A stretch of 37,089 bases of DNA. It comes from a virus. The notes under the pieces were generated by a model. That model ran no database searches. It saw nothing but the letters and a program-made list of their open reading frames with translations, and was not told the DNA's origin. The stretch lies in IMG/VR virus record IMGVR_UViG_3300009618_000019; one strand, given 5' to 3'. Shown here piece by piece: positions 2,468 through 29,102 of the stretch. Every line of letters begins with the position of its first letter. The stretch's first letter is position 1. A program made the translations under genes and the position numbers.

Positions 2468-2760
2468 CTTATACCGCCGAACGTTGTCCAATGTGTGCGG
2501 AAGGAAAAGTCTTTTCTGAGCATACACAACTCTTTCGAGATTGTACCTTTTGTGCAGGACTTGGGACTGTGTTTCCCAGCCACAAATGTGCCTGTGGTGC
2601 TTCACCAACACAAATTACGTCAGATGGTTTTATGTATTGCGGAAAGAAGGTTTGTCTCGACGACCTGAAACGCGATGCAGCAACGTCTGTTGAATCATTA
2701 GGTTATACAGGCTTTGGTTGGCATAGTCCGAGCGGATATGATTCTCGTTACTCGGAATAA
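2431..2760 (+). CDS. Zn-finger-like protein (start uncertain)
   Basis: CPMC, CTFC, CACG and CxxxxC motifs. Confidence 0.55.
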   Translation: MGIIMQATSKGVTYTAERCPMCAEGKVFSEHTQLFRDCTFCAGLGTVFPSHKCACGASPTQITSDGFMYCGKKVCLDDLKRDAATSVESLGYTGFGWHSPSGYDSRYSE

Positions 2761-3317: not shown

Positions 3318-3431
3318 TACACGAGGGGTTTATAGCCTGGTGCGTAGCCTTTGCGATGTTGCAGTCGCCGGGGTCGGAGGTCTGCTTAAACTGCAACCCG
3401 ACCTCCCACCAGGCTATAAACCCCTCGTGTA
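3318..3431. repeat. IR element 2: perfect 25-bp inverted repeat, 64-bp interior
   Basis: 3318-3342 TACACGAGGGGTTTATAGCCTGGTG pairs exactly with 3407-3431. Confidence 0.97.
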
Positions 3432-3447
3432 TAAATTGGAGTAACGA

Positions 3448-4017: not shown

Positions 4018-4870
4018 CAAATTTGAGCGCCTCGGTGTATCCCCGATGCCACGTCCTTTTCCAGGAAAATACCCAACGCGGATGCAGATAAAGGCTATCC
4101 GTGGAGATATACCTTTTCAGTATACAGGGAAACCTGTTTCTGTTTTGAAGATGCTTGTTCGGAAACAGTTCATTTGTTGTGGTGGCAATTGCTTCAACTT
4201 GCGAGTTACGGAGTTCGATCAAAATGGAATAATAAGACGCTCGAATGGTGGTAATCTTGAACTGTCTTGCACCTTCGCTGACTTGTATCATCCTGTTCCA
4301 CAGGCGCTTTGGGAAAATCTTGGGCGCGCAACACGCTTGTTGATGATGTTGGATCGCGTGCTTGTGAAGATTGATGGAATTTCTGTTTATACGAACAAGT
4401 TCTGGTTAAACACACCTTGGCTTGAAGGTATTCATCGAATGGCACGAAACGCCATTCATGCACGTCTTGGGAGACAGTGGTTTACCGAAGCGAATGCGTT
4501 AGAACTTTCTCGGCTTTTGGAGGATGGAGAAAACAATCCAACACAGACATGGACTCGACTCGTGCCCGTAGTACCAACGCCTCCTACACCAACAAGACCT
4601 GTTTTACATCGGCGTCCGCGCAATGTTCCACCACCCGAAGCCCAGATCGAACGCCCACAGATAATACCGACGCTTCCGGGGCATTGGACGCTTGAAGCCG
4701 AGATCGGACGCCCGCAGATAATACGGATACCTCTGGGGCATTGGACGCTTGGGGAACATGCTCAGGCGCAACTTCAACAAAATCAACAAGCGGCAGCCAT
4801 ACTGCAACAGCAAAATGGTAATGTCTTACGTGACACTGACGATGATATGATCCCTGAGTATCCTCTATGA
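4007..4870 (+). CDS. hypothetical protein with Pro/Gln-rich C-terminus (probable start ATG 4007)
   Basis: Long ORF overlapping its neighbours; 19-aa internal duplication near the C-terminus. Confidence 0.7.
   Translation: MAYDKFERLGVSPMPRPFPGKYPTRMQIKAIRGDIPFQYTGKPVSVLKMLVRKQFICCGGNCFNLRVTEFDQNGIIRRSNGGNLELSCTFADLYHPVPQALWENLGRATRLLMMLDRVLVKIDGISVYTNKFWLNTPWLEGIHRMARNAIHARLGRQWFTEANALELSRLLEDGENNPTQTWTRLVPVVPTPPTPTRPVLHRRPRNVPPPEAQIERPQIIPTLPGHWTLEAEIGRPQIIRIPLGHWTLGEHAQAQLQQNQQAAAILQQQNGNVLRDTDDDMIPEYPL
4637..4750 (+). repeat. two tandem 57-bp (19-codon) direct repeats
   Basis: 4637-4693 versus 4694-4750, 49/57 identical; encodes EAQIERPQIIPTLPGHWTL and EAEIGRPQIIRIPLGHWTL. Confidence 0.9.
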
Positions 4871-6321
4871 ATCGACAAGCTGTTTTACGCGCCTCGTTGA
4901 TGGGCGAACATTTCGATGCAGATCAAAAGAAGGTTGACTGGGCCTTAAATCACAAGCCCCTTATGTCTCCTTCGATCTTCACGATTACAGGTCGTTACTT
5001 GAACCATTTTTGTGTTGGTTCTGATCCTGAGTTTTGTTTCCGTGATGAATACAACCATCGCGTTGAGGCTGTTGCTTGTGGCCTTAAAGTAGGACTTGCA
5101 GCAGGTGCAGACCAGAATGAACGTTTGGTAGAACTGCGTCCTTGGCCTTCTGTTTCGGTGGTAGAACACATGGCAGGCATTTTAACTGCATTAAGATGGC
5201 TGCATCGTGTTTTTAATCAGGCAACAAGCCGTTATTTGTGGAGAGCAGGCGCTTATTTTGCCGGAGACGGAATAGGTGGTCACATTCATTTTGGTCGAAA
5301 GCGGCCTACCAGGATCGAAGAGGTTGCGGCTTTAGATGGTCTCGCAAACGTTCTCAAGCTAAGTGGGCTGTTTCCTGTGACAGAGTGGGCTCAACGTATG
5401 CGAGGAGACCACTATCACAATGCCCCTTATGGATTGCCGGGAGATTGGCGCGTTCAACTTCATGGTTATGAATACCGAAGTCTGCCTTCATGGCTTCAGT
5501 CGCCAACCGTTGCCTTTATTGCTGTTGCTTCTTCTAAGCTCGCAATACTTGATCCTGCAATTACAACAACTTGGAAGCAGCTTATTTTGACAGAAACGAC
5601 GGCACGTAATCAACTTCGGGGACTTGCGAAGTTGTATAAAGGGCGCGACGATGACGCATACATCCTTTATTACATCCTAACGAGGAATGGTGATGCGCCC
5701 TTCAACGTTGATTATGCTGGTGATTTTGCGCCTAGTTGGGGCATTCCACGAACCGCTGCTCCATTAGAAGCTGACGGGGGTGTGATTTTACCTAGTTGCA
5801 TACAACCCCTTCCTGAAGAGATTAACGAAATGCGGGACCATCTGTTGTTTGGGGTGCCTTTGACATTTACGCTTCATCCCCCGAACTTCAAGACATCAAT
5901 TCCGAATTGTTATAGGTGGCTTCCTGTTTACGTAAATCCAGGGCGTCGATCTGGGTTTGGTGATTTACTCCACAATCTCGTGGGGCATCGCGACTTTGAT
6001 TTGTATTGGGACTATAACAACGACGGGAACTTTCGTATTACAGGAAAGTTAACAACACTTTGGACAACAGCAGAAAAAGAAATGTTGCGGCGATATTATC
6101 CCGGAGTTATCATATCTTCAAGTAGCCGCGATTCTGGTTCAGGCCTTTTAATTCCAAAATGTTTGTGTCAAACAGCCACCATTGCAGGACTCCGCGCAAT
6201 TTTACTTAATTCAGGACTATTCCCGCTTTGGACCGTTGAGACAGTTGAAGCGGATTCTTTCGCAAAATGGTTCGCAACTAAAAAAGAGCTTGTTGCATCA
6301 CGAGTCTGGAGGACTGTGTAA
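4867..6321 (+). CDS. COOH-NH2 ligase type 2 (amidoligase), paralogue 2
   Basis: GSDPEFCF, VELRP, GGHIHFG, YEYRSLPSWL. Confidence 0.85.
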   Translation: MNRQAVLRASLMGEHFDADQKKVDWALNHKPLMSPSIFTITGRYLNHFCVGSDPEFCFRDEYNHRVEAVACGLKVGLAAGADQNERLVELRPWPSVSVVEHMAGILTALRWLHRVFNQATSRYLWRAGAYFAGDGIGGHIHFGRKRPTRIEEVAALDGLANVLKLSGLFPVTEWAQRMRGDHYHNAPYGLPGDWRVQLHGYEYRSLPSWLQSPTVAFIAVASSKLAILDPAITTTWKQLILTETTARNQLRGLAKLYKGRDDDAYILYYILTRNGDAPFNVDYAGDFAPSWGIPRTAAPLEADGGVILPSCIQPLPEEINEMRDHLLFGVPLTFTLHPPNFKTSIPNCYRWLPVYVNPGRRSGFGDLLHNLVGHRDFDLYWDYNNDGNFRITGKLTTLWTTAEKEMLRRYYPGVIISSSSRDSGSGLLIPKCLCQTATIAGLRAILLNSGLFPLWTVETVEADSFAKWFATKKELVASRVWRTV

Positions 6322-7361
6322 TGTGTGGAATCGCTGGAGTACGTAAATTCGGAGCGACTCCGATAACAGGAGAAGAGCTTATACTGTTGCTCTGTTCCAT
6401 TGAGCATCGTGGACAACACGCAACAGGTATTGCTCTGGAAGGCCCAGACGGTATTTTCGTGTTTAAGGCACCTGAACCTGCATGGAAGTTTACTCGATCA
6501 AAGGAATTTGAAGCCTTCCTGAACGAGCACTTAACAGAAAATACGCGCACAGCACTTCTACACACGCGTTGGTACACCGTTGGCAGCCCAGAGGACAACG
6601 AGAATAACCATCCAATGTGGGACGGTGAAACAGCCGTTGTTCACAATGGTTGTATCTCGAACCATCTTACGCTCTTCTATCAAGGTCACTATGAACGTTC
6701 TTGTGAGACCGATTCGGATATTCTTCGAGCAATCATCTCTGAACATGGTATGAATGAGGCTGGAATTCGCGAGTTGAATAAGGTTCAAGGTTCTGCGGCG
6801 ATTGCAGCTATATCTTCACGCTATCCTGACAAGTTGCTCCTTGCTCGAAGTGGTTCGCCTATTGTTTTTGGCTTCACGGATAACGGTGACAAGCTCTACT
6901 GGGCATCTGAAGCGCAGGCGATCCTACGCGCCTGCAAGCCATTCCATCAGGTAAGAGGCGTTTGGGTACAAGATACACGGGCAAATGTAAGTGTTGGAAG
7001 TATGCCCGATAATACGGCTTGGGTCTTTGGGCCAGAAGAGATCGAATTTCATCACGAATTCAAGCTCTGCACCTTCTATCGACAACCCGACTATAAGAAC
7101 GGACGTGAAAGTTACCACTCGAAGATGCGCACTGCCAAGTGGGAAAAGCGCAAGAAGGCCACAACTGGACCAACAACAATCGTTCATGTTCCAACACCAG
7201 CAGGTGTACACAGTCCGCTGTCAGCCGCACCTACAGTTATTGAGAACTTACGTGGGGCTGTAATCAAGTGCCCTGCTTGCGGTCATGGAAACCAAAACGT
7301 TAAAGGTTTTCCCTGGAATCTCTTAGTATGTCATAAGTGCAAAGGTAGTTTGGGGGCGTAA
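6321..7361 (+). CDS. class II (Ntn) glutamine amidotransferase with C-terminal Zn ribbon
   Basis: N-terminal MCGIAG (Cys2 nucleophile), RGQHATG, HTRW, NHP, HNG, TDSD; CPAC...CHKC at the C-terminus; start overlaps the upstream stop (TAATG). Confidence 0.9.
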   Translation: MCGIAGVRKFGATPITGEELILLLCSIEHRGQHATGIALEGPDGIFVFKAPEPAWKFTRSKEFEAFLNEHLTENTRTALLHTRWYTVGSPEDNENNHPMWDGETAVVHNGCISNHLTLFYQGHYERSCETDSDILRAIISEHGMNEAGIRELNKVQGSAAIAAISSRYPDKLLLARSGSPIVFGFTDNGDKLYWASEAQAILRACKPFHQVRGVWVQDTRANVSVGSMPDNTAWVFGPEEIEFHHEFKLCTFYRQPDYKNGRESYHSKMRTAKWEKRKKATTGPTTIVHVPTPAGVHSPLSAAPTVIENLRGAVIKCPACGHGNQNVKGFPWNLLVCHKCKGSLGA

Positions 7362-7364
7362 CCG

Positions 7365-7523
7365 ATGTATACACCGAACTGTAATCCTTTCTTCATGTTG
7401 GGAGAACGTTGTCCTGATTGCGGAGAAGCTGAAAATTGCTATCCTGATAACGAGCTACCCTGCGACTATCCAGAGACACTTGAACCGCGTATTTGTGAGA
7501 TGTGTGGTCACTGGGTCAGTTAA
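7365..7523 (+). CDS. small Cys-rich protein (52 aa), below the ORF-track cutoff
   Basis: ATG 7365 to TAA 7521-7523; CPDC and CEMC motifs; fills the gap between GATase and ATP-grasp genes. Confidence 0.6.
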   Translation: MYTPNCNPFFMLGERCPDCGEAENCYPDNELPCDYPETLEPRICEMCGHWVS

Positions 7524-7533
7524 CGAGGTTATT

Positions 7534-8301
7534 ATGGAATTTCGTGTGGCGAGAGCAGCAAGAGTAACAGGCGAACTGCTTGAAACACTGGTTCGACAAG
7601 CACTTCGCGCGCAGGACATTCCTGAGCCTGATTGCGTAATCTGCTATGGCGTAGGCTATAGTGGGACAAAACCAGCATTGAATGCCAAGTGTTCGACACT
7701 CAACAAGATGCAACAAGGCATCAAGCTCCATGAAAGGCTTCGTGAAGAAGCCCTTCAGATTATCTTGGCGCAGGATGCTATTATGATGCCAGGAAATCCA
7801 CCGCTAATTGGGAGAAACATTCAACACAGTAAGGGACGTGATATACGATATTGCCGAACCTTACGAATGATGAATAAAGCCATCCGGCTTGGCCGTGCTT
7901 ATTTTACTCCTCTCGTAGATTCCGATACAGAATACAGGGTCTGGGTGTATCGCAAGAGAGTTTTATCGGTCTACGAGAAAAGGTTAACTGAACCAGAAAA
8001 CAACACAAAGTTTGGGCGGAATCGCGCGAATGGTTGGACATTTCACGCACTTGGGACGGAGGAAATCCCTGAGAGCGTGCGTATGGTTGCCAAGAAAGCT
8101 GTTGCTGCATTAAACCTGGACTTTGGCGCAGTAGATATTCTCGGCAAGTGGGAAGACGAGGCACACACAACCCTTCATGCAACAGTCTTGGAGGTTAATT
8201 CAGCTCCTGGCGTTGCAAATGAACATCGCAGTTGTATCGTTCGGCTTACCAATCGCATCGTTTGTTGGATCGCGAACGGGTGTCCAGCACGAACAGAATA
8301 G
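7534..8301 (+). CDS. ATP-grasp fold ligase (RimK/glutathione-synthetase-like); probable start ATG 7534
   Basis: EYRVWV, DFGAVDIL, LEVNSAPG motifs; GAGG RBS before 7534. Confidence 0.85.
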   Translation: MEFRVARAARVTGELLETLVRQALRAQDIPEPDCVICYGVGYSGTKPALNAKCSTLNKMQQGIKLHERLREEALQIILAQDAIMMPGNPPLIGRNIQHSKGRDIRYCRTLRMMNKAIRLGRAYFTPLVDSDTEYRVWVYRKRVLSVYEKRLTEPENNTKFGRNRANGWTFHALGTEEIPESVRMVAKKAVAALNLDFGAVDILGKWEDEAHTTLHATVLEVNSAPGVANEHRSCIVRLTNRIVCWIANGCPARTE

Positions 8302-8703
8302 GGGAGGGGTTTGTGGCCTGGTATGGCATGATCGACTGAATTGTCGAAGCCTGCGGTGTGTCTCCTGCGCCAGGCCACAAATAGGTGATTTATGGGTGTT
8401 AAGAAGCACTTCATTCTTACAACTTCAGATGCGATCTTTGTTGGGCCTGCAGTGCATTATGAGTTGCTGAGGCTTTATGGAATTTGGCGTACAAACTACC
8501 GACTCCCTCAACTTGCAGAAATTCAATGGCCTGTAGGGGGCTGGCGAAAGCGTGTTCCCTTTCTATACCAAATCCTACATGCTGCAGTAAGAGATCGCAT
8601 ATATACCCTACGCGAATTACGCGCCCGAAATCCACGCAAGGAACAAGAATATCGGGATGCACTCGGCTGGATTAAGAACCACCCCAGGCCACAAACCCCT
8701 CCC
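8302..8703. repeat. IR element 3: perfect 20-bp inverted repeat with a covaried motif core (GTG/CAC), plus an internal 12-bp copy of the right-arm core
   Basis: 8302-8321 GGGAGGGGTTTGTGGCCTGG pairs with 8684-8703; CCAGGCCACAAA occurs at both 8370-8381 and 8684-8695. Confidence 0.92.
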
Positions 8704-8715
8704 AGAGGTCGCTAG
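8392..8715 (+). CDS. basic hypothetical protein (107 aa) carried inside IR element 3
   Basis: AGGTGA RBS at 8383-8388; the ORF reads through the right arm. Confidence 0.6.
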   Translation: MGVKKHFILTTSDAIFVGPAVHYELLRLYGIWRTNYRLPQLAEIQWPVGGWRKRVPFLYQILHAAVRDRIYTLRELRARNPRKEQEYRDALGWIKNHPRPQTPPRGR

Positions 8716-9078
8716 ATGAGTTTGCGAACTACGCACTTTGCGAAGATAAATGGAGAAGTTGATATTTTCTCTGGGGGTAAGCAAGAGACGTTTCTTCGCT
8801 GCTATGAACACGGTGTTGTTCCGCCAATTCCTTTTTATTCAATCTATCAGAATGGATATACAGCGAGAGACCCTATCTGGACTTGTTTGCGTTGTTTTGA
8901 AAAGTGGACAGGGTTTGCTGTACAGGCGGCACTTGAGAAGAACTGTTGTCATTGTTGCAAAAGTGTAGAGAACATCAAAGCGTGTGAGATGTGTGGAAAG
9001 TTGGTGTGTTTTAACCACCAGCAAGAAGGAGTTTGTGATGATTGCTTTGAAGGAATTCGAGGAGCCGGAGGTAAGTAA
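8716..9078 (+). CDS. Cys-rich Zn-finger protein (120 aa)
   Basis: CLRC, CCHCC, CEMC, CxxH and CDDC motifs. Confidence 0.65.
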   Translation: MSLRTTHFAKINGEVDIFSGGKQETFLRCYEHGVVPPIPFYSIYQNGYTARDPIWTCLRCFEKWTGFAVQAALEKNCCHCCKSVENIKACEMCGKLVCFNHQQEGVCDDCFEGIRGAGGK

Positions 9079-9607
9079 GTCAATTCGGCGGGAACTTGAA
9101 AATTATCTTTATACGCAGTGGGTTAAAAGTGATGAACCTAAACGCGAACTGATTGAGCGGGAACTGCGAGAGCTTTTGATGAATCATGCACAAGCTGTAA
9201 TGTATATAATTTTGCGAAGGGGAGATCGCGACCTATTAACGGAAGCTGTTGATAAAGTTATGGTTAACCTTCCCACTTTTCGCGGAGACAGTTTGTTTAC
9301 CACATGGGTACATCGCATTTTAATGGGTGTGATGTATGATCAAAGACGTATGGAGCGCAAGAGAAAAGAAGTTTCTTTGGATGTTCCTGGTTTTGATTTA
9401 CCAGGTGACTCAAGTCCAGGTGTTGTAGACCTGCTTTTAACTGTTAAACAGCTGTTAACTCCAGCCGATTTTACTATCTTTGAGGAAGTTGCGATTTGGG
9501 GAAAGTCTCACGGGGAAGCTGCAAAGAGCTTGAACATCCCAAAGGCAACAATTACAAGGAAGTGGGATCGCATTTCGAGGACGTTGCGCCATGCCTTTAC
9601 TAAATGA
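9038..9607 (+). CDS. ECF-type RNA polymerase sigma factor (probable start 9038)
   Basis: Region-2-like FRGDSLFTTWVHRILMGVMYDQRR; region-4 HTH-like GKSHGEAAKSLNIPKATITRKWDR; AAGGAG RBS at 9026-9031. Confidence 0.85.
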   Translation: MIALKEFEEPEVSKSIRRELENYLYTQWVKSDEPKRELIERELRELLMNHAQAVMYIILRRGDRDLLTEAVDKVMVNLPTFRGDSLFTTWVHRILMGVMYDQRRMERKRKEVSLDVPGFDLPGDSSPGVVDLLLTVKQLLTPADFTIFEEVAIWGKSHGEAAKSLNIPKATITRKWDRISRTLRHAFTK

Positions 9608-10814
9608 TTTTCTGGTTGGAGCTGATCCAGAATTTATCATTCTCGAAAACGGCCACATGAAGCAGTTTACGGGGCGCGGAGATGTTTATGCGCCTTGGGG
9701 CCTCGATCATGGGAGGTGGGTCATTGAGCCGCACCCCAAGCCAGACATGTCTGTGAGGCAACTGATTCAACACTTGAAGAGTTCTTTCAATGATTTTGCG
9801 ACTGTTGCGCCGTCAGGTAAATGGAGAGCTGGTGCCCACTTTAGTTCACCTGAACGCTCAATTACGTTAGGTGGGCATGTACACATTGATCGACCTACTT
9901 GTACACCTGCACAACGAGATGGTTTGGATTTGTTTACGCGCCACTTGGAGGCTCTGGATATTCTTCCACAAACAGAATGTGTTGAGCGTAGGAAGAGTTC
10001 TTATGGGCAATATGGAGATGTTCGTTGCGAGCATGGTCATTTTGAGTATCGAACATTGGCTTCGTGGTTGTTTTCGCAGCGCGTAACAAAACTGTGTTTG
10101 ATCGGAGCGAAGCTAATTATGGTGGACCCTGAAGCTCCGAGAGCAGCTCTGGGTGCGCCTGCCCAGGCTGCTGTTCCAAAGTTGAAGGCATTCTTTGAAA
10201 GGTTTCAGAATCGTGATGAAGATGTTGACTGGATTTTAGGTGCCGGAGTGTTGGGGAGAAAACTTAATGTCAAGCCTGATCGAGACTTGCGCGATGTGTG
10301 GAAGGTTGAGCCTGTAAAAGAGAATCCGAGATGGAAAGAAGAAAAGGCAAGACTAGCACCGCCCCCGCAACCACAGGTACGTCGCAATATGGTATATAAC
10401 GTACCCGAACGCAGACCTTATATTTTTGAAGTGGAGGGCTATTACGTTTCCTTCAGAGTTGGTGTTGATAGAATTCCTACACAAGATCAACTTGAGGCTA
10501 TTCGCGAGAATTGCCGTCGAAGAACCGCTGCGCTTGTAGTAGGGGATTGGCAGCCAGGTCGCGATTCGCTTTTTGTTTGGGGTATATTAGGACAGTCTTG
10601 GGGGAGCATATCCATCCCTAACAAAATAATCAGAACAACTGTCGATGGTACACGTTATAAATGGATGGTCATCGAGAACTGGGAGATCGATGATCGTGTA
10701 CGTGAAATTTTAAGAAATTATGTACACGAGGGCAATACAACAGCAACAAACCAAGTTGTTTTACGTGAAGGTTTGCTCTTTCAACCTTTGGGTCCACAAG
10801 GCGAACACGATTAA
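9591..10814 (+). CDS. COOH-NH2 ligase type 2 (amidoligase), paralogue 3, with unrelated C-terminal extension
   Basis: GADPEF, IEPHP, GGHVHID, FEYRTLASWL. Confidence 0.8.
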   Translation: MPLLNDFLVGADPEFIILENGHMKQFTGRGDVYAPWGLDHGRWVIEPHPKPDMSVRQLIQHLKSSFNDFATVAPSGKWRAGAHFSSPERSITLGGHVHIDRPTCTPAQRDGLDLFTRHLEALDILPQTECVERRKSSYGQYGDVRCEHGHFEYRTLASWLFSQRVTKLCLIGAKLIMVDPEAPRAALGAPAQAAVPKLKAFFERFQNRDEDVDWILGAGVLGRKLNVKPDRDLRDVWKVEPVKENPRWKEEKARLAPPPQPQVRRNMVYNVPERRPYIFEVEGYYVSFRVGVDRIPTQDQLEAIRENCRRRTAALVVGDWQPGRDSLFVWGILGQSWGSISIPNKIIRTTVDGTRYKWMVIENWEIDDRVREILRNYVHEGNTTATNQVVLREGLLFQPLGPQGEHD

Positions 10815-18434: not shown

Positions 18435-18801
18435 GCTACAAGAATGTTGTCGTTATTGGCAGAAGGTGCTTCGTCTCAACGATGTTGAAATTGAAGTAAG
18501 CTTTGCGCGTAAACTCGAATTAGACTGTACTGGACAAACACAATTTACGTCCGACAATAACGCTGCACTAATTCAAATCTGTCCAAACACACTCGCGAAT
18601 CTTGATACCCTTTGGATGATCGACGAAGAAGTTATTCTTGTACACGAACTTGTTCATGTACAAGAACGTACTTGGGCTGTTAGCAAAGAGTTTCGCGACC
18701 TTCTACAGAACAAAGCAATTAATGCTGCCCATGAGGCAGGCATTGAAAGAACCGCACAAGCGTTAGTAACGCTCAGACGGCAAACCGAGGAGAAACATTG
18801 A
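18421..18801 (+). CDS. putative zincin-like metallopeptidase
   Basis: HELVH (HExxH) with a downstream E. Confidence 0.55.
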   Translation: MTEPELQECCRYWQKVLRLNDVEIEVSFARKLELDCTGQTQFTSDNNAALIQICPNTLANLDTLWMIDEEVILVHELVHVQERTWAVSKEFRDLLQNKAINAAHEAGIERTAQALVTLRRQTEEKH

Positions 18802-19142
18802 GTAAAGCAAAATACAGAGTTATTCCGGGCGCACTTGCGCAGATTACCTTGACAGGGGAGCCTGTCTTCGTTCATGCGATTGATCCTGAAGTTGAGGGTG
18901 CGGAGCGTTTGGCAGTCATTACACGCCCGGTCGTAACCCAAAATGGCATCGAGTATCGCAGCGAACAGGTTGCATTGGAGTTGCTGGAAACGCGCTTTGA
19001 ACAGGCTAAACGAACTGTGGAGTTCGAGAATTTTGTTCAAGACCTGCGCGAGGAAGCAAACAACAAACGCTATGCTCTTACCCCACCGCAACAGGCTGCC
19101 TTGCTTAACAACGGACAGCAACAGCTTCCTTTTAATAACTAA
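18798..19142 (+). CDS. hypothetical protein ending in QQQLPFNN
   Basis: In-operon ORF with GAGGAG RBS. Confidence 0.65.
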   Translation: MSKAKYRVIPGALAQITLTGEPVFVHAIDPEVEGAERLAVITRPVVTQNGIEYRSEQVALELLETRFEQAKRTVEFENFVQDLREEANNKRYALTPPQQAALLNNGQQQLPFNN

Positions 19143-19170: not shown

Positions 19171-19962
19171 ATGTCTAAAGCACTTTGGGTAGCTTGCTAT
19201 GATTTGCACTACCCCAAAATACACAAGCCGACATGGACCGCCATCTTGGATTTCATCGCTAAGAACAACGACAAGATTGCGGGCTTTATCTTTGGCGGCG
19301 ATATGCACGATAACCAAGAAATATCCCACCACACCACGGGTAAGCCGTTATTGAGGCCACCCGGCTCGTATGCCCTTCATACTGAAGGGTTCGATCGTTT
19401 TATCCTGTCCCCACTCGAAAGTATTCTTCCCGCCGACGCAAAGAAGGTCTGGATCGAAGGCAATCACGAGTTCTGGGTTAATCAGTTAATTGAGAGACAA
19501 CCAGAATTGCAAGGTACGCTTGAACGGCCACTCTTGCTTAATCTAGTCGCGCGTGGTTGGGAAGTTCTCCCGCTTGGTGCTGGAAAGAATCTCGGAAAGC
19601 TCCTTGTCGTTCATGGAGAAGGCTTAACCGGCATCGGCAATCAAGCGTCTATCTATCACGCAAAGCGTGCTGTTGAATCTTTCTGTTGCTCTGTCCTTTA
19701 TGGTCATTTACATTCAGCACAGAGTTATACTAAGGTTCTCCCGCATAACACCCGCGACAAGTGGATCGGGTACAGTTCTCCGGCTGCTTGTAGTACAAAT
19801 CCAGACTACTTACAGAACAGACCGACAGCTTGGGTAAATGGTTTCGTAATTGTTGAACTTCACGAACCTGAAAAGAAGAACAGCAATTTTAACACCTATC
19901 CCATCATTGTCAGTGATGGGGTGTTTAGCTTCGGCGGAAATATCTATGGCAAAAAGGCTTAG
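19171..19962 (+). CDS. calcineurin-like metallophosphoesterase (second family)
   Basis: DLH, GGD, GNHE, VHG, GHLH. Confidence 0.85.
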   Translation: MSKALWVACYDLHYPKIHKPTWTAILDFIAKNNDKIAGFIFGGDMHDNQEISHHTTGKPLLRPPGSYALHTEGFDRFILSPLESILPADAKKVWIEGNHEFWVNQLIERQPELQGTLERPLLLNLVARGWEVLPLGAGKNLGKLLVVHGEGLTGIGNQASIYHAKRAVESFCCSVLYGHLHSAQSYTKVLPHNTRDKWIGYSSPAACSTNPDYLQNRPTAWVNGFVIVELHEPEKKNSNFNTYPIIVSDGVFSFGGNIYGKKA

Positions 19963-20530
19963 AATCGGTGTTGATGTTGATGGTGTACTTGTAGACTTTA
20001 TCTCCGCCTTTCGCAAAGAGGCGGAGATAGTTCTTGAACGTCAGTTTCCACTACCTGATAGTTGGAACTGTGAAAACTGGAATACAACACAAGAAGAAAT
20101 GCAAAAAGTCTGGAAGCTTGTTTGTACAACACCTAATTGGTTCTTGTGGAATTGCCCTGTAAAACCTTTCGTTGCAGAGAACCTGCCCTGGTTAGTAGAA
20201 AACCATGATGTTTATTTCATCACGGCCCGTACTCCGACAGCGGGCTTTTCTGTTCAAGAGCAGATTCAGATGACGCTTAATCAGCTCGGTGTTGATTTTC
20301 CAACTGTGTTAGTTGAACAAAACAAGGGACCTATTGCTGCTGCTCTCCAGCTTACTGCTTTTGTTGACGACAAGATCGATCATTTAATCGAAGTAGATAA
20401 CGCAACAAAGAAAAGTACTCAAAATTTCTTAATGAGCTTGTCACACAATGAAGTGTATAAAATTCCGTCTCGTTGGACTAGAATAAAGGATTTCGGGGAG
20501 TTTGTTGCAAAGATTAAGGAGATGGAATGA
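19946..20530 (+). CDS. HAD-superfamily 5'(3')-deoxyribonucleotidase-like protein (probable start 19946)
   Basis: DVDGVLVD motif I, FITAR motif II, FVDD motif IV. Confidence 0.85.
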   Translation: MAKRLRIGVDVDGVLVDFISAFRKEAEIVLERQFPLPDSWNCENWNTTQEEMQKVWKLVCTTPNWFLWNCPVKPFVAENLPWLVENHDVYFITARTPTAGFSVQEQIQMTLNQLGVDFPTVLVEQNKGPIAAALQLTAFVDDKIDHLIEVDNATKKSTQNFLMSLSHNEVYKIPSRWTRIKDFGEFVAKIKEME

Positions 20531-21006
20531 GTTCACCTGGAGAATATTTACTGGATAAAGCAGGTGTGAAGTATGACAAAGACAAACTACGTTATGACCT
20601 CGTTCCTGCCTATCCAATGGAACAACTTGCGGAAGTTTATACCTTTGGTGCAAGGAAATACTCGGAATGGAATTGGGTTAAAGGTATTAAATACTCTCGG
20701 CTCATTGCTGCTTTGTTTCGGCATTTCTGGGCATTCGTTCGTGGAGAAGACATCGATCCTGAAAGCGGACTCCCACATCTTGCACACGCTCTCTGGAACA
20801 TCACAAGCCTCCTCTATTTCTCAAAGTACCGTCCCGACTTGGATGATCGTCAGTTGGTACGGAAGGAAAGCAGAGGGCCGAACAACAGCTTCGGGCCAAA
20901 GATTCAGATGGAGGACGTTAACTGCTGCATCCAGAACACTCCCGTTCGGGACCCGTCTAAGACTTACCTTCCCGACGACGGGGAAATCCGTGATAGTAAG
21001 TATTAA
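20527..21006 (+). CDS. dATP/dGTP diphosphohydrolase-like (DUF5664) protein with C-terminal extension
   Basis: GVKYDKDKLRYDLVP, GARKY..WNW.KG, RH, DPESGLPHLAHA. Confidence 0.85.
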   Translation: MSSPGEYLLDKAGVKYDKDKLRYDLVPAYPMEQLAEVYTFGARKYSEWNWVKGIKYSRLIAALFRHFWAFVRGEDIDPESGLPHLAHALWNITSLLYFSKYRPDLDDRQLVRKESRGPNNSFGPKIQMEDVNCCIQNTPVRDPSKTYLPDDGEIRDSKY

Positions 21007-21133
21007 CGATAGAGGCCCTCTTAACCAAGCCTGGGGCTTGGACATCTCAGAAGCTGCGGCGATAGCCCTGGGAATGAAGAAAGCAGGTATCGCTAAACTT
21101 GCAGTAGAAGTTCAATGTGAGAGGGGTTTATAG
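20843..21133 (+). CDS. RlpA-like double-psi beta-barrel lytic transglycosylase (probable start ATG 20843)
   Basis: SWYG, TASG, TAASRTLPFG, INDRGP, LDISEAAA; overlaps DUF5664 by 164 nt in another frame; its stop codon lies in a motif copy. Confidence 0.75.
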   Translation: MIVSWYGRKAEGRTTASGQRFRWRTLTAASRTLPFGTRLRLTFPTTGKSVIVSINDRGPLNQAWGLDISEAAAIALGMKKAGIAKLAVEVQCERGL

Positions 21134-21140
21134 CCTGGGG
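21121..21140 (+). repeat. IR element 6, left arm (19/20 motif)
   Basis: GAGGGGTTTATAGCCTGGGG; partner at 22712-22731. Confidence 0.92.
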
Positions 21141-21146
21141 GTTGCT

Positions 21147-21626
21147 GTGAAACAAAGTGAGAAGTGGGATAGACGTTATCTCGAACTGGCTAAGCATGTT
21201 GCCACATGGAGCAAGGACCCATCTACTAAGGTAGGGGCTGTTCTAGTTAACTACGAACAGAAGAAAGAGTTCGTAGGCTATAACGGCTTTCCAGAAGGCG
21301 TTCAGGATTCACCAGAACGCTACAACGACCGCGAGATCAAATACAAGTTTGTTGTCCACGCAGAAGTTAACGCCATCCTTAAAGCAGGCGGCTATGCACG
21401 GGGCGCAACTTTGTATATCTATCCCAGCTTTTCATTGCCCCCGATCTGTAACGAGTGTGCCAAAGTTGCAATACAAAGCGGCATTAAAGAAGTCGTTGGT
21501 TATTCGCCAGATGCGAACGATCCGCGAGTAAAGCGTTGGGCCGAAGCTATTCTAGTTTCTAAGAGTATGTTCGAGGAAGCAGGCGTGTCCTGGAGAGCGA
21601 TTGATGAAACAAACAGAGATTCATAA
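21147..21626 (+). CDS. dCMP deaminase family protein (probable GTG start 21147)
   Basis: SKDPSTKVGA, GYNGFP, HAEVN, PICNEC Zn-binding motifs. Confidence 0.9.
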   Translation: MKQSEKWDRRYLELAKHVATWSKDPSTKVGAVLVNYEQKKEFVGYNGFPEGVQDSPERYNDREIKYKFVVHAEVNAILKAGGYARGATLYIYPSFSLPPICNECAKVAIQSGIKEVVGYSPDANDPRVKRWAEAILVSKSMFEEAGVSWRAIDETNRDS

Positions 21627-22464
21627 GCTGCAGGCTGCGTTCGAGCGTTACTTTACGCTTACTACAACACGCCCAACAGCAGTTCGTTATTGTAAATCAC
21701 TTACGTCTTTCTTTTCCCGCTTCCCCGACAAGGCGCGCCCTGAAGAATTTACACGCCGTGATGTTGAAGACTTTCGCATCCTACGGCTTCGTGAGGGCGT
21801 AAGTCCTCGAACAATCAACTATGAACTTGGAGTCTTACGTCAATTTTGGGCGTGGCTTCAACAGATGGAGCTTGTTACATGGAATCCGGTTACACAAGTC
21901 AAACGGTTGCGCGAGCGGGAGTCCTCCAAGACATCATTAAGCGTACAGCAGCAATTGGAGCTACAGAAGGGGTGTTACTGCTGGGCGGACCGTGCACTGG
22001 TTGGTTTAGCATTGACTACTGGGTTGAGGGGGGAGACCCTTGCTTCCCTAGAGAAATGCGAGATCGACTTCGTGAGGCAGTGTCTAACTATTCCAGCGAC
22101 GAAGATGAAGACGGGAAGGAACCACGAGATACCTCTGCCGCCTTGGGTTCTGAAATTGTTGGAGGAAGCGCCTGATGGTCGAATCTTTGCGGATTACGCA
22201 AAAGACACCAACTCAGTTCGTTATAGATGGGGCTGTATATGCAGACGAGCCGGAGTCCCTACGAAAGGAATCAGGACGGCTCGTAGAACGTTTGCTACAA
22301 CTTTGCTTAGAAGCGGAGCCGACCTTAAACTCGTGCAGGATTTACTTGGTCACAGAAACATTGCGACCACTAGTAGATACCTCACCCCTGCAGATAGCCA
22401 AACAACCAGAGATGCTGTAAACCGCCTACCTATCCCGGAGGAATACCTTGAGCGATCTGCGTGA
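21601..22464 (+). CDS. tyrosine recombinase/integrase (XerC/D-like)
   Basis: N-terminal core-binding region (SPRTIN), TGLR, ARRTFAT, LLGH, TTSRY; the HxxR box reads RTAR. Confidence 0.92.
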   Translation: MMKQTEIHKLQAAFERYFTLTTTRPTAVRYCKSLTSFFSRFPDKARPEEFTRRDVEDFRILRLREGVSPRTINYELGVLRQFWAWLQQMELVTWNPVTQVKRLRERESSKTSLSVQQQLELQKGCYCWADRALVGLALTTGLRGETLASLEKCEIDFVRQCLTIPATKMKTGRNHEIPLPPWVLKLLEEAPDGRIFADYAKDTNSVRYRWGCICRRAGVPTKGIRTARRTFATTLLRSGADLKLVQDLLGHRNIATTSRYLTPADSQTTRDAVNRLPIPEEYLERSA

Positions 22465-22764: not shown

Positions 22765-23145
22765 CTATACAACTTGTAGTTCTCGAAGCGGGGAGTCGTG
22801 TGGACTTCCCGCTATTTTTATCCTTACATACTCGCGCGTGACAGGTCCCATGATTATACAACCATCGCTGGACAACGCAGGATGTTCTACGTTTGCGCCA
22901 TGAATAAAGAAGGAGCCCCGCCCAAACATTTCATTGACAGGATCGGGCGTTAGCGGAAAGGCCTTCGGCCCCAGATGTGTTCCGTCTTCAGGGTCTTCTA
23001 CAATGTACTTTCCTTTTGGCAGCGGCCCCACATCTTTGACATTTTGCATTGCGGGATTGTTGCGCCCTTGCAAATGCCCGGCCCAACCACTGCCAATCAA
23101 CTTGTCTGCGTCATAAAGACGCCCTGTTACCTGTTCATAGTTCAT
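22765..23145 (-). CDS. Tlde1/DUF2778-like L,D-transpeptidase-fold protein
   Basis: GRNNP..Q....GPLP.G.Y, GRGSFFIHG, SSDGCII (His/Cys catalytic pattern). Confidence 0.8.
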   Translation of the reverse strand: MNYEQVTGRLYDADKLIGSGWAGHLQGRNNPAMQNVKDVGPLPKGKYIVEDPEDGTHLGPKAFPLTPDPVNEMFGRGSFFIHGANVEHPALSSDGCIIMGPVTREYVRIKIAGSPHDSPLRELQVV

Positions 23146-26100
23146 TGATTTTCACGCTCCAGTTTAGTAGCAAGGCCTCTTAGTTGTTGAGGGTTAAGAT
23201 TGTCTTTATAATCATTCAATGTTTTGCGCATCTCGTTCTTCTCAGGAGACTCTGGCATTGCTTGAATCTTCTTTGCAAAGAGTGGCGCAAGCTGCTGCTG
23301 TTCTTGTTCGTCAGCGACCTTCCAGACGCGGAAGAAAGGCTCAGGCGTGAGATGCCTGGATTCCTGAACAAGCTGGGAATCGTTGTAGGTTTTCGTCAGA
23401 TAAGGAACCTCAGAGCGCTTTAGGCGAAGCTGTCCAATACCCACAACGTGCTTTCCGTTTCCACGAACCGCATTAACTACGTCGTCCCTGGAAATCCCAC
23501 CTGCCTGAACCTGTTGACGCAGGTATTTGAAAGTATTACGCTGTTCTAGTTCAAGGTCGGTTTGAGGCTCAGCCTTTGGAAGTTTGTCGAACTCGCGGAA
23601 GGCAACTGTCTCTGCTGGAGTTCTATACTTCTTTGTTTGAAGCCCAAAAGAAGATAGTAAGGAACTTATGACTTCATGATTGTCCTGTGGCTGCCGCAAT
23701 CCTTTATCAAGCTTTGCTGCAATTGCCTGTATAGCACCCTGCACAGGAATTGGTAGGCCTGAATTGAAAGCATCAAGCAGCTGTTGATCGCGTGTTGCTC
23801 TATTGCCAAAAGCATCTGTATTGGAAGCAAGTTCAATCGAAGGTCGCAATAAAGGATTCAGTCTGTGTTCTACTGCAAGGTTTCGATCTCCATACTTGAT
23901 TTGATTGCGTGTTCCAAGAGCTAATTCAATCGCGTCACCTTGAGCAGAACGCATACTTACACTGTACTTGCCAACATGAAGCCTGTTCCATTCGCCCCAT
24001 GTATCGGGGTTGTTTGCATGAAAATCTGACTTACCATTGATCGCAAGATTTAAGCCTTGAATAACAGCAAAGGTCGTTGCCATACCGAGACCAAGTGCCC
24101 AACGCGACTCGCTTCCACCGGGACGAAAGGCATCTGCAACAAAGCCAGCACGTGCCGTTAAAAAGTCAGGAGCCAGAAGCAAAAAGCCTAAAGCATCCTG
24201 TCCCGTCTTTCCAAGGCCTAGACGAGCAAAGTTAATTCCACCGAAAGCGAAGTTTGCTTGAGCCACACTTCTACGATAGATATAACCCTGCGCCAGTTGA
24301 CTTGCAATCTTGGTTTGTTCAGCAAGAGGCAAATTTGGTGCTTTGGCTTGTACGTTCTTTAGTTCACGTGCAGTCCACTTATCAAGGTAGATATTCCGAT
24401 TTCGCTTTAGTGCATCTAGATAGGTTCTCATCATTAGGTCTGGTCGGACCTTATTAAAGGTGAGATTATGAATAAGTCTATCTACAGCACCGAGCACAGG
24501 GCTATGTTCCGTTAAGCCACCTTTACCAGACAAACCTTCTGAAACAGATGCACCTGGATCGAGTGGACTTCTCAATTCCAAACCATGAATAATTCCCTGT
24601 TGCTGATCGAGGTCATTAAGGTCAACAACACGCTCTGCATGAAAAGGGTTTAGCGTTTTTAATGTATCAACAGTTAGTGTTTTAGAGACAGCACCCACCA
24701 TTGCATGTTCTGCCGCATGTGTCGTAAGCTGAACGGCGTGAAAACCACTAAGACTTAGCAAAGTAGACTTCGCAGTATTCCGCACATTCACAGCAGCGTT
24801 CAAAGGTGCATACTGCCTGAATAAACTGGGGTCCATCTCCTTGCGGATATAGCCAATCTCATCAGGATGAACCCAAACATCAGACATTCCAAGGATCGGT
24901 TTGCCACCCGTATCGGTTCCCCACCAACGCCAGTCTGTAAAAGCTGGATGCTCATAAGGAACATAAGGACGCCCATCTGCAGCTTGTGCAGCAGGCGGCA
25001 ATCCTGTTTTTAGATAGACTGCACCTTTCCCGCCTTCTGCGGGATCAACATGAGTAAAGGCACGGTTGAAAGCAAGCACAGGTTGACCGTCTGCGCTATT
25101 AGTCTCACGTAGACGTGCTACCATGTCTCTGTTAGCAATAACACGTGCCGATGTTAAGCCACGTTGTGCAATAAGATAAGCGCCATCCATGCTTGTCGGC
25201 TGTAATCCACGCGTAAGACCCTCATAATAAGTCATAGCGTGCCGCATCTTCATGAATGAAGCAGTTGTTTGATAACCAGAGCTTCCGCGAAGCCCCTTAA
25301 TTGCATCACGAAGTGTTGCACCAGGCTTAAAGGCGTGCATCCAATAATCAGAAAGTGCTTGGTATGTTAGACCTTTGTTGTGTTCCCAATCAACAAGGTC
25401 ATCATTATATTTCCGATAACGCTCCGCGAAAGCCTTTTCAGAATCTGTTAAGTTAAGCGCCGCTTGAAAAATCGGATGCGCTTTCTTAAACGCGCGACTA
25501 CTCGCCATAAGCGATTGGATTTGATCGGCTTGGGCCTGAAGGTTAGCTCTAGCTTCTTCATCTGAATACCTATAAATGACGCCGCGACCTTCGGGAGTTC
25601 CTTCAGGTACTGGGCCTTCTGCATGTGCAATATAGGATTCCGCGTGTGCAACAATTGCTGCACGGCGAATTGGATCAGGATGTAATTCCTCGAACGTTCT
25701 TATGAAAGGTTCGTGTTTAGCTGCCAGGCGAAGTTGATCGAAATTGCGTTCACCAAAAGCCTGATATGTTGCAGATAGTTCGTTGGTATCTGCAAACTTC
25801 TGCCAAGCCTGTTGCAACATGGGATAAGTATTCTGTACTGCTGTTGCTAAGCTACTCTTAGCAGCTTCCATAAATGCCGGAACGCGTTGCATCTCACCCT
25901 GCAACCAGCGATTAAACTTTACCTGTAAAGGTTCCTTAACTGTTGGTTGTTGTGCTAAATCCTTTGCAAATGCGTCAATCGGGTGATTCGGGTCTGGTCT
26001 AAGGAATTCATCCATCGACGCTGCACCAGACGCAGGCGTTGCCGCACGCACCGCGCGCCGGTACATCTCAGTAATAGGGTTCGCGTGGAAGGTTGTTTCT

Positions 26101-29100
26101 CCACTCTTCAAACGCTTTAAGGTATTTACTGTACTTTGAAGTGCGTTTTCGTCGCCTGCCTTTAACTTCGAGACGAAGAGTTTAAGCGCACCTACGTAAG
26201 CTTTAGGTAAATCCTCCGAGGATTCCCCAAGACGCTCGCGTAGAACCTGCTTTAACAATGGAAAAGCACCTTCCGTTTGTTTAGGAAAGGCCTCACGTAT
26301 TGCAGCTTCTGCCTTATTTGTTGCAGCTAAAAGGCTAGAACTCGTACCTTCCGTGTTCGGGGCGACAGGACGGACTTCGGCGCTGCTTGCTGCCGGGGTC
26401 GCTTCGGTGGTCGAAACGGGTTTTTGAACGACGGTGGACGCGACGGCGTTGTTGGCTTGGGCTCCAGTATGCTTGGGGTCATATAATTCCTTCGGCAGTT
26501 GCGCCTTTATGGCATCAGGTAAAGCATCAATTTCCTGTGCAAGCTTGCTGGGTTTAGACGTACCACTCCGCTTCGCTTCCCACAAAGGAACTCTATCACG
26601 TAATGCTTGTGTTCCGCGTTCAATTGCAGCTTGCAGAACAGCCTGGTGTCCACGCATCTGCGCTTCATGCCAAGCTTCGTTACGCATTCCAAGACCGGCT
26701 TCATCTGCGGTTACTACACTAAGGCCATTTGTATCTAGTGTAGATGCTAGTCCTGCGCGCGCTTTAGGTGTAGAAAGATTATATTCTGCAGGAACCCCAT
26801 TCGTTCCAACAGCCAAAGCGTTAGGAAGAACAGCGCCTTGATTTTGTTCCTCGCGTTCGACACGCATACGATCTTCGGGAGACATAAGCTCCCGCAAGTT
26901 GCGAGCGTTCTTTAGGCCTGCTGCTGTAGCATTCTCAGGATTGATGTGAGCTAGTGGCTGAACAGCATCTGTGTTCTTGCCTGGTTTCTTTCCAACCTCT
27001 AATTTAGATCGAAGATCATCATACTGCTGCCCAGACAACCTCCACTCACCATCTTCGTTATAAAGAGACTCTGGTACAACCTTAAGCGTTTTCGCTACCG
27101 CATCAACGGTAGCTTTTTCTTTTGTATCTAATGCTTCGTACTTCGCGTTCGTATCCAGAAAAGGATTGTCTGGACCACCTTGCAATTCTGTAGGTGGCGT
27201 CCATTCAGGTGCACGTTTCTTAAACTCCGCAAAATCTTCGTCGGAAAAAAGTTGAGTACCTGCTTTACGGACAGCATTCTCAACATGAAAACGATCCTCA
27301 CCAGCCTGCTTTAGTTGCGTAAGCTTTGCAATCGTCTGAACAACCGGACGAAACTCTCCCTCCATCGCGTTAGCCTGCGCAATGTTGCCACGTGGTTTTA
27401 CTTGGGGCTTAGGCGTTGTGGGCGTTTGCTGGGAGGGGTTTATGGCCTGGGGTTGGGGGGTCTCTGCGGGCGCTCGTTCTGCTTCGGACTTTATCGTAAA
27501 GACCTTGGCAGGAACCTGCTCTCCCTGGCGGGTTGCATACTCTGCTCGATGAGTTCCATCATAGAGATAGTCTCCATGATCTGTACGCAATACCTCAACC
27601 GGAGGCATGTCTTTTACATTGGCTCCAGCCTCCTGCCAATCTGACAGCTTCTTTTCATTCGTCCAATCCTGCACCCGATGCAGCGTCGAAGGATCGATAT
27701 TCTCGTTCCCGACAGAAACTACAGAAGTGTTGGGTTGCTTTTCAAGCCATGCAGATAGAGTATAGCCACTGTTCTTTCCCACCTTAAGCATTTCCAAAGT
27801 CTTTGCATCAGGCTTGGGCTTTGGAACTACAGGCGCAGCCTCCGGAGCTGGTTTATCAAAATCCAAAGGCATCTGCCAAGGATTCTCAGGAAACTGAAAA
27901 GCCGTTTGCGCAGAAGGACCTTCAGGAACACCTGCTGCACGTTCCTCGGGAACCAGACTTAGCTGGCGGGGTTCATTTGGAAACAACCGCAGTTGTCCGT
28001 TCGCTTCAGCCAGTGGAGGCTGTGCAGTAATTTTTTGTTCCGGTAACTGCGACCAATCAAAAGAACCTTGTACAGGCGGTGTCGGTAGGGCATTTCCTTC
28101 AAACGGTAGTTGTAACTGTTCAGGATTCCTCATGGGCGGAACGTTAGGCGGTGGAATATTTATGGTTGGAGCTGAAGAAGGACGCCTTGCAGCATTTTGT
28201 GGAATATCACCCCAAGGCCTTAAAGCCGTAGGTGCACCAATTTCTCTACCGTTCGCATCATACGGACGTAACCAAGGCTCATTTGGATGCTCTGCCATCT
28301 GTCCCCGCAGATAACCAGGAATTATTCCTTCCCAGTAAACAGGGTTGTTTGGATCGACGCGCGGCCCCACAAATGGTTTGGAACCCTTAAAGACACTTCT
28401 TCCAGCTAAAGCAGTCATAACAGCACCAGCAACACCCGACCCTGCTGTTTCGGCCTGCGCTTGAGAAATTCGATCTATTGCTTTTTGGTATTCAGGAATT
28501 TCAGAAGTACGTCCATATGCTTGTGCATCTTGAAGTGCTTGTTGATATGCTTGTTTCTGTTTATGAAGTTCGATTTCCTGTGAGCCTGCTCCAACGACGG
28601 CCTTGCCTCCTTGTGCTGCAAAATAAGCAGGAAGAAGTTTTTCAAGAACAGGTGTTAGTACTGGAGCAACACCACTTGCAGCTTCTCCTACAGGTCCCGC
28701 CATCTTCATTGTAAGAAGGCTGCCCGGTGTTGTCAAACCGCTTACAATCTTCGCTGCTCCTGTTCCAAAAGATCTTACTGCACCAGGCCGTTCTGCACCG
28801 CTTTTACCAACATTCGCCATCTCCTCAAAGGAGAGTGTTTGTCCGTGTTGACGGTCTGCATCTTCAGTCAACGGATTCAGATGCGACTGCATCCAATCAG
28901 GTGCGTTTGGAAAGTTCCTCCGAACAGCATCACCGAGAGATGTATTACGAACCGTGTTTAGTGCAGACTCCCAAAATCCGGGAGTATGTGGGCCAACAGT
29001 ATCAGACGGCTGTGGTAATGCAGCTGGCTGTCTTGTAGGCAAGTCAGTATATTGCGTATTTTTACTAGGCGGAAGGTCCGTATAAGGAGGCATTATTTCC

Positions 29101-29102
29101 AA
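23142..29102 (-). CDS. giant internal virion/ejection (polyvalent-like) protein, 1986 aa
   Basis: Position after two smaller ejection-like genes; Pro/Ala/Gln-rich linkers; ParB/Srx-like segment (PPVEV...YLYDGTHRAEYA). Confidence 0.75.
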   Translation of the reverse strand: MEIMPPYTDLPPSKNTQYTDLPTRQPAALPQPSDTVGPHTPGFWESALNTVRNTSLGDAVRRNFPNAPDWMQSHLNPLTEDADRQHGQTLSFEEMANVGKSGAERPGAVRSFGTGAAKIVSGLTTPGSLLTMKMAGPVGEAASGVAPVLTPVLEKLLPAYFAAQGGKAVVGAGSQEIELHKQKQAYQQALQDAQAYGRTSEIPEYQKAIDRISQAQAETAGSGVAGAVMTALAGRSVFKGSKPFVGPRVDPNNPVYWEGIIPGYLRGQMAEHPNEPWLRPYDANGREIGAPTALRPWGDIPQNAARRPSSAPTINIPPPNVPPMRNPEQLQLPFEGNALPTPPVQGSFDWSQLPEQKITAQPPLAEANGQLRLFPNEPRQLSLVPEERAAGVPEGPSAQTAFQFPENPWQMPLDFDKPAPEAAPVVPKPKPDAKTLEMLKVGKNSGYTLSAWLEKQPNTSVVSVGNENIDPSTLHRVQDWTNEKKLSDWQEAGANVKDMPPVEVLRTDHGDYLYDGTHRAEYATRQGEQVPAKVFTIKSEAERAPAETPQPQAINPSQQTPTTPKPQVKPRGNIAQANAMEGEFRPVVQTIAKLTQLKQAGEDRFHVENAVRKAGTQLFSDEDFAEFKKRAPEWTPPTELQGGPDNPFLDTNAKYEALDTKEKATVDAVAKTLKVVPESLYNEDGEWRLSGQQYDDLRSKLEVGKKPGKNTDAVQPLAHINPENATAAGLKNARNLRELMSPEDRMRVEREEQNQGAVLPNALAVGTNGVPAEYNLSTPKARAGLASTLDTNGLSVVTADEAGLGMRNEAWHEAQMRGHQAVLQAAIERGTQALRDRVPLWEAKRSGTSKPSKLAQEIDALPDAIKAQLPKELYDPKHTGAQANNAVASTVVQKPVSTTEATPAASSAEVRPVAPNTEGTSSSLLAATNKAEAAIREAFPKQTEGAFPLLKQVLRERLGESSEDLPKAYVGALKLFVSKLKAGDENALQSTVNTLKRLKSGETTFHANPITEMYRRAVRAATPASGAASMDEFLRPDPNHPIDAFAKDLAQQPTVKEPLQVKFNRWLQGEMQRVPAFMEAAKSSLATAVQNTYPMLQQAWQKFADTNELSATYQAFGERNFDQLRLAAKHEPFIRTFEELHPDPIRRAAIVAHAESYIAHAEGPVPEGTPEGRGVIYRYSDEEARANLQAQADQIQSLMASSRAFKKAHPIFQAALNLTDSEKAFAERYRKYNDDLVDWEHNKGLTYQALSDYWMHAFKPGATLRDAIKGLRGSSGYQTTASFMKMRHAMTYYEGLTRGLQPTSMDGAYLIAQRGLTSARVIANRDMVARLRETNSADGQPVLAFNRAFTHVDPAEGGKGAVYLKTGLPPAAQAADGRPYVPYEHPAFTDWRWWGTDTGGKPILGMSDVWVHPDEIGYIRKEMDPSLFRQYAPLNAAVNVRNTAKSTLLSLSGFHAVQLTTHAAEHAMVGAVSKTLTVDTLKTLNPFHAERVVDLNDLDQQQGIIHGLELRSPLDPGASVSEGLSGKGGLTEHSPVLGAVDRLIHNLTFNKVRPDLMMRTYLDALKRNRNIYLDKWTARELKNVQAKAPNLPLAEQTKIASQLAQGYIYRRSVAQANFAFGGINFARLGLGKTGQDALGFLLLAPDFLTARAGFVADAFRPGGSESRWALGLGMATTFAVIQGLNLAINGKSDFHANNPDTWGEWNRLHVGKYSVSMRSAQGDAIELALGTRNQIKYGDRNLAVEHRLNPLLRPSIELASNTDAFGNRATRDQQLLDAFNSGLPIPVQGAIQAIAAKLDKGLRQPQDNHEVISSLLSSFGLQTKKYRTPAETVAFREFDKLPKAEPQTDLELEQRNTFKYLRQQVQAGGISRDDVVNAVRGNGKHVVGIGQLRLKRSEVPYLTKTYNDSQLVQESRHLTPEPFFRVWKVADEQEQQQLAPLFAKKIQAMPESPEKNEMRKTLNDYKDNLNPQQLRGLATKLERENQ
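27433..27452 (+). repeat. motif copy inside the giant ORF (18/20), left arm of putative element 7
   Basis: GAGGGGTTTATGGCCTGGGG; encodes PQAINPS on the coding strand. Confidence 0.8.

Follow-up and report, generated by a model that had tools for sequence, protein, structure and literature searches.

A giant protein encoded by an uncultured phage carries, within a proline-rich linker, a cluster of short glutamine-anchored peptides that look like those through which bacterial proteins bind the beta sliding clamp (DnaN). The locus raises the question of whether this cluster is a true array of binding motifs or an accident of composition and, if it is an array, whether the sliding clamp of the host is a plausible partner. 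An earlier note on this DNA had proposed that the peptides form a multivalent clamp-binding segment that is injected with the phage genome. The window referred to below is the whole stretch of DNA that was analyzed, 37,089 nt of IMG/VR record IMGVR_UViG_3300009618_000019.

The Giant Protein and Its Genomic Setting

By its gene content, the window belongs to a phiEco32/SU10-like podophage that has not been cultured. On the plus strand are genes for phiEco32-type COOH-NH2 ligases, a GATase, a PolA-UDG polymerase and a tyrosine recombinase, together with a sigma-like gene and others for nucleotide metabolism. The minus strand runs from an SU10-type adaptor through a 950-aa gene, small genes and a 439-aa gene to the giant gene, followed by a gene with a Tlde1 domain. 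The same order, with genes of ~900 and ~440 aa, is found in four other phages (five with the window), the last gene encoding either Tlde1 or a lysozyme, and in G001, a complete 64.9-kb relative genome with terminal repeats, the terminase, an SU10-type portal and a capsid gene lie upstream of this block. The gene under study is:

23142–29102, minus strand: giant open reading frame, 1986 aa when read from a TTG at 29102; last large gene of the tail/ejection block

The start codon is likely to be the ATG at 29093 (residue 4), directly next to where the upstream gene ends; the Atlas record of the protein begins at the same residue.

The five proteins that SU10 encodes after its tail genes are ejection proteins (PMC9509320). 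Judged by gene order, the giant protein occupies the position in the morphogenesis block where SU10-type phages encode such proteins. Delivery in the virion is suggested by this match to the SU10-type ejection block, and from synteny alone it would be reasonable to suppose that the protein is packaged and injected. The protein and its parts matched no Pfam family (no protease domain was found by this route) and no PHROG, they had no DNA or protein match among 50,697 phage records, and no sequence similarity to characterized ejection proteins was found. A likeness to LPD38 is a language-model lead only, consisting of an Atlas feature similarity of 0.97. The giant protein is best explained as an internal virion (ejection) protein of polyvalent type in a phiEco32/SU10-like podophage.

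Two features of the locus may be recorded in passing. The gene that follows (22765–23145, minus strand) specifies a Tlde1 domain (L,D-transpeptidase-like) in four phages and is replaced in L011 (13563–13985) by a phage lysozyme, two different peptidoglycan enzymes being interchangeable at this position. The giant protein also has a second repeated short motif, at its extreme N-terminus, where residues 5–22 (29037–29090, minus strand) comprise two tandem copies of (P)QYTDLP. There are three copies in L001/G001 and a variant, YPDYADMP / YPQYQDL, in L002.

Effector Modules beside the Linker

The linker that holds the peptides is followed directly by a folded module:

27813–28205, minus strand: Pro-rich linker with the motif array, aa ~300–430; probably disordered
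27486–27806, minus strand: ParB/sulfiredoxin-fold (ParB/Srx) module, aa ~433–539, with a DGTHR motif

The ParB/Srx module was modeled by AF2 with a pLDDT of 79, and its best Foldseek matches are sulfiredoxin and ParB N-domains; a profile search of the PDB with the module gave no sequence match, and the fold search was needed to place it. The module is mobile, recurring in other giant multi-domain proteins, for example P0012 (3393 aa), where it is accompanied by ddrB-ParB and helicase domains. Other relatives of the giant protein differ in the same region. In P0023 (aa 395–490) and P0034, the slot that the motif array takes in the window is filled by a GGDEF diguanylate-cyclase domain (Pfam E=1.4e-8). 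In P0004 (L002:9400–9650, aa ~405–490), an insert of about 85 aa (LYHGS...WFSTS...) splits the array between sites D and E, as defined below; its Atlas features point only to ADP-ribosyltransferase families (PARP, Arr, ART-PolyVal and Tox-ART-HYD1, at 0.82–0.85), which is a lead and nothing firmer. Other homologues have only plain linkers in this slot.

As far as these domain assignments go, the variable N-terminal third of the giant protein is a slot for unrelated effector modules, an architecture characteristic of polyvalent proteins. Since the neighboring modules make use of NTPs, NAD or DNA, the region would be expected to act in the cytoplasm, and cytoplasmic exposure of the array-bearing part may be inferred from synteny together with those domains. 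A GGDEF domain borne by a virion would be notable on its own.

The Peptides in the Linker

I will refer to the six peptides as sites A to F, in order from the N-terminus:

28101–28118, minus strand: site A, QLQLPF, aa 329–334; a hexamer fitting Q-phi-x-[LM]-x-[FL]
28053–28070, minus strand: site B, QGSFDW, of which QGSF is aa 345–348 (28059–28070); conserved as Q-x-S-F-x-[FW], off the published consensus
27981–27995, minus strand: site C, QLRLF, aa 370–374; a consensus pentamer
27951–27965, minus strand: site D, QLSLV, aa 380–384; not conserved, reading QMELR in close relatives
27891–27908, minus strand: site E, QTAFQF, aa 399–404; kept as Q-x-x-F-x-F-P-E in all five lineages
27858–27875, minus strand: site F, QMPLDF, aa 410–415; a near-consensus hexamer kept as Q-x-x-L-D-F (QMSLDF, QGRLDF)

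Translation of 23142–29102 (minus strand) places all six exactly where the earlier note had put them, over 87 aa (residues 329–415). The array-bearing segment contains 23 Pro in 108 residues (21%). AF2 rendered the linker as coil with pLDDT values of 32–44, within a 440-aa model that was poor as a whole (mean 38, from an alignment of 4); the linker may be disordered.

Site A reads QLSLPF, QLSLPL, QLNLPL or QTEFNF in relatives, while site C is present in all five lineages (as QLRLF, QLPLF or QLKLF) and is always followed by P. Site D is probably not functional, to judge from its replacement. The array of six that had been described is thus an array of five conserved sites, QLSLV having dropped out, and two of the five, QGSF(DW) and QTAFQF, fall outside the clamp-binding consensus. 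A likeness of NPW and PWG in this region to colicin TolB boxes was considered and dropped, as the residues are not kept in P0018.

Clustering and Conservation

The clustering of the peptides was compared with that in shuffled sequences. The 108-aa segment contains four matches to a relaxed motif, against a mean of 0.06 in composition-preserving shuffles, none of which (0/20000) reached four. Matches to the strict consensus number two, against a shuffle mean of 0.016 (P=0.00025), and no shuffle of the whole protein put four matches into one 100-aa window. These P values are illustrative, the patterns having been chosen after the sequence was seen. An independent and fairer background is provided by 13 homologous giant proteins without the array (~1900 residues), which contain zero or one match each. 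The array is real, and its clustering exceeds what chance would give.

Conservation was assessed over the only five array lineages known: the window, L001/G001 and L002, which make up a diverged close set, and the distant P0018 and P0022. Searches of metagenomes, IMG/VR and protein databases found none beyond these. In residues 361–420 the window is 83% identical to L001 and 72% identical to L002, as compared to 20–40% in the C-terminal half of the protein. Just 25–35% of the identical residues share the same codon. By the method of Nei and Gojobori, dN in the linker is 0.16–0.23, the lowest in the protein, versus 0.35–0.82 elsewhere, with dS saturated. Recombination was rejected as the source of the high identity because synonymous sites are saturated. 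The substitution pattern indicates that the linker is under strong purifying selection.

What in the linker is being conserved can be read from the distant relatives. I took as anchors the Q, the +3 and the +4/+5 residues of sites A, B, C, E and F (15 positions). Within the close set, 75% of anchors are kept versus 60% of the residues between motifs, a difference that is not significant. P0018, which is about 30% identical elsewhere and whose linker has diverged, reads QTEFNF, QASFGF, QLPLF, QTRFEF and QGRLDF at the aligned sites, and P0022 retains QLKLF and QLGFNF. Between the window and P0018, anchors are identical at 13/15 positions and other linker residues at 26/84 (p=7e-5); taken across the five sequences, anchors are conserved at 15/15 and the remaining linker positions at 20/84 (p=1.5e-8). 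Variation is seen at the x positions (R/P/K, Q/S/N, P/S). Conservation of the motifs against a variable linker, which the earlier note had named as a check, is therefore found both with P0018 and across all five sequences. The comparison supports the view that the linker holds a true array of short linear motifs with selectively conserved anchors.

The anchors are not all that is kept. An island between motifs, AAGVPEGPSA, before site E, is retained even in P0018, and flanks that belong to no clamp-binding definition are conserved as well, namely the F-P that follows sites C and E and the PEGPSA that precedes E.

Likeness to Clamp-Binding Motifs

The clamp-binding motif has been defined as Q-phi-x-[L/M]-[F/L] or Q-phi-x-[L/M]-x-[F/L] (PMC11139829). 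Sites A (QLQLPF) and C (QLRLF) fit this definition, as does F (QMPLDF) if M is accepted as phi; sites B, D and E do not. By lineage, site C conforms in 5/5 and site A in 4/5, the site A of P0018 lying outside. Two of the peptides can be matched to particular ligands: QLSLPL, the reading of site A in L002, has been used as a strong clamp-binding motif (PMC3664792), and QMPLDF resembles a clamp binder obtained by phage display, LQLELDF. Sites B and E (QxxFxF) resemble only the weak epsilon motif, QTSMAF.

As to which clamp might be bound, no DnaN domain was found in the complete genome of G001, and any clamp partner would therefore be that of the host. A phage-encoded clamp or pocket module was considered as the partner and set aside, being absent from G001 and from the open reading frames scanned in the window. 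Two scans of 185,579 species genomes, made in search of the phage's host, gave no relative.

Possible Partners of the Array

The best reading, which I hold tentatively and at a little less than an even call, is that the array binds the DnaN pocket of the host as a multivalent docking array. With the linker in the cytoplasm, its peptides would fit into the hydrophobic pocket through which the clamp binds its partners, the QLxLF and QLxLP[F/L] peptides acting as strong sites and the other three as weaker ones. Avidity would come from the several sites per chain and the two pockets per clamp. The array would tether the giant protein, and with it the adjacent ParB/Srx module (ART-like in relatives), to DNA-loaded clamps, and it would also block the pocket needed by host polymerases and Hda. 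An E. coli cell contains 60–120 clamps, 46 of them on DNA (PMC4284645), and with so few a handful of injected five-site chains would not be negligible; either tethering or partial sequestration is possible. Several points weigh against the clamp. Sites B and E and the site A of P0018 lie outside the consensus, some flanks are conserved, the array is known from just five lineages, and a reader on the lookout for clamp motifs chose the motif class, which is a selection effect.

The principal alternative accepts a true array of short motifs but gives it a different partner (a portal, scaffold or core virion protein engaged for packaging, or some other host protein), the likeness to clamp ligands being a coincidence. 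I consider it a serious contender, if on the doubtful side. It accounts for the high conservation in close relatives of the entire linker rather than of the anchors alone and for that of the flanks just described, and three of the five sites depart from the consensus in an array that is confined to a few lineages of one phage group. The near-equal conservation of inter-motif residues in close relatives and the island kept in P0018 do suggest that the partner, whatever it is, may read more than a clamp-binding core. Yet an invariant Q followed by L/F at +3 and +4/+5 is the signature of sliding-clamp ligands, and in every lineage site C has the form of a textbook pentamer. Furthermore, relatives that lack the array (P0015/P0019-type) keep the same virion neighbors, so the shared architecture requires no role for the array in assembly.

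It is improbable that the peptides instead serve a structural or processing function in ejection, whether as short amphipathic beta strands with hydrophobic residues at i, i+2 and i+4 or as sites of protease cleavage. The hexamers do alternate hydrophobic residues (L-x-L-x-F, F-x-F, M-x-L-x-F), and proteolytic processing has been proposed for polyvalent proteins (PMC5512222), but the segment is 21% proline with no predicted secondary structure, the invariant Q has no obvious role in a strand, and a protease domain was not found in the giant protein. Chance clustering of functionless peptides in a Q/L/P-rich region of low complexity, to which the biased composition of the segment might lend some color, is effectively refuted by the shuffles that never match the observed count, the lowest dN in the protein and the survival of the anchors in an otherwise diverged linker.

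To return to the host clamp as partner, the reading may be extended to a general proposal. Injected giant proteins with host-mimicking arrays of clamp peptides would dock on, and partly occupy, the small clamp pool of the host within seconds, placing effector modules (a ParB/Srx nuclease or NTPase, or an ART) at host forks or on the entering phage DNA. I regard this as possible, though somewhat further from an even call. Were it true, such proteins would be clamp clients of a new class, and early takeover of the host by virion-borne proteins would have a new mode.

Comparison with Known Systems

Bacterial clamp-binding motifs follow the consensus QL[S/D]LF, with examples in Pol II (QLGLF), UmuC (QLNLF), Pol IV (QLVLGL), Hda-type proteins (QLSLPL) and epsilon (QTSMAF). 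The peptides of the giant protein share with them the Q anchor, and the hydrophobic residues at +3 and +4/+5; the x positions vary likewise, and the linker in which they lie may be similarly exposed. They differ in that five sites follow one another along about 90 residues of a single chain, as candidate ligands known from sequence, that the carrier is not a DNA enzyme but would be a virion protein of a phage, and that F occupies position 4 in two of the sites.

Phage Mu offers another parallel, its MuC/Mor docking on the E. coli clamp by means of two motifs, QHDLF and QPDLF (PMC12867686). Here too is a phage protein with clamp-binding peptides of the host type, and more than one of them per protein. 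MuC, however, is a small late transcription factor made in the cell, with its motifs at the termini, whereas the present array is internal to a giant protein. Transposases and a group II intron protein also make use of clamp-binding motifs.

The polyvalent proteins of Iyer et al. (2017, PMC5512222) resemble the giant protein in being giant products of late genes, with a variable effector slot, encoded at the end of the virion block. Unlike them, the giant protein matches no Pfam LPD, ddrB-ParB or ART-PolyVal model, and the clamp is not mentioned in that paper. Ejection proteins (gp14–16 of T7 and gp20–24 of SU10, PMC9509320) are similarly large and similarly encoded after adaptor and nozzle genes and beside a peptidoglycan enzyme; the giant protein differs in having no similarity to any deposited phage and in being known from genes alone. 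Gp168 of phage Twort likewise targets DnaN, which for the giant protein is a proposal, but Gp168 is a small early protein without such a motif and fills the DNA channel, not the partner pocket.

Clamp-binding peptides are known from polymerases, repair proteins and transposases and, very recently, from the late activator of Mu. In the literature I found no report of them in virion, ejection or polyvalent proteins, nor as tandem arrays. If the array is confirmed as clamp-binding, it would present a known class of motif in a setting and a format that are both new, as tandem copies within a virion protein. Binding to DnaN would mean that the phage targets the replication hub through a protein delivered with its DNA, before phage genes are expressed. 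At the clamp numbers of E. coli, a few multivalent molecules could matter, and the peptides would constitute natural high-avidity ligands for an antibiotic target. Should the partner prove to be another, there would still be a well-defined and strongly selected motif array in a class of proteins whose mechanisms are almost unknown.

Other Features of the Phage Genome

One further peptide of the same kind lies outside the giant gene:

19116–19133, plus strand: QQQLPF, a tentative extra motif in the 114-aa open reading frame 18798–19142, just downstream of the DNA polymerase

This open reading frame had been described as ending in QQLPF. The motif is there, two residues before the stop codon, so that the end in fact reads ...QQQLPFNN*. 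The homologue in G001 ends QPTLPFPH*, although the preceding residues differ, and the shorter homologue in L011 is without the motif. QQQLPF may be a further clamp-type motif, on a protein of the replication module. An alternative reading of this C-terminus as an SSB tail was dropped, as F is not the last residue; nor does the L011 homologue have the motif.

Three other groups of genes on the plus strand deserve mention. At 19171–21626 there is a cluster consisting of a metallophosphoesterase, an NT5C-type 5'-nucleotidase, a MazZ-like dATP/dGTP diphosphohydrolase N-domain (PF18909, E=3e-32) and a dCMP deaminase, kept beside the integrase in relatives; the cluster may point to altered nucleotide pools or to a modified base in the DNA. 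The tyrosine recombinase (Phage_integrase, E=3e-21), at 21601–22464, is placed where the two convergent gene arms meet and is conserved in all relatives; phiEco32/SU10-like phages are usually regarded as lytic. The region 1151–10814 contains, beside three paralogous COOH-NH2 ligases of the phiEco32 type, a glutamine amidotransferase of Ntn type and a gene like sigma-70 region 2.
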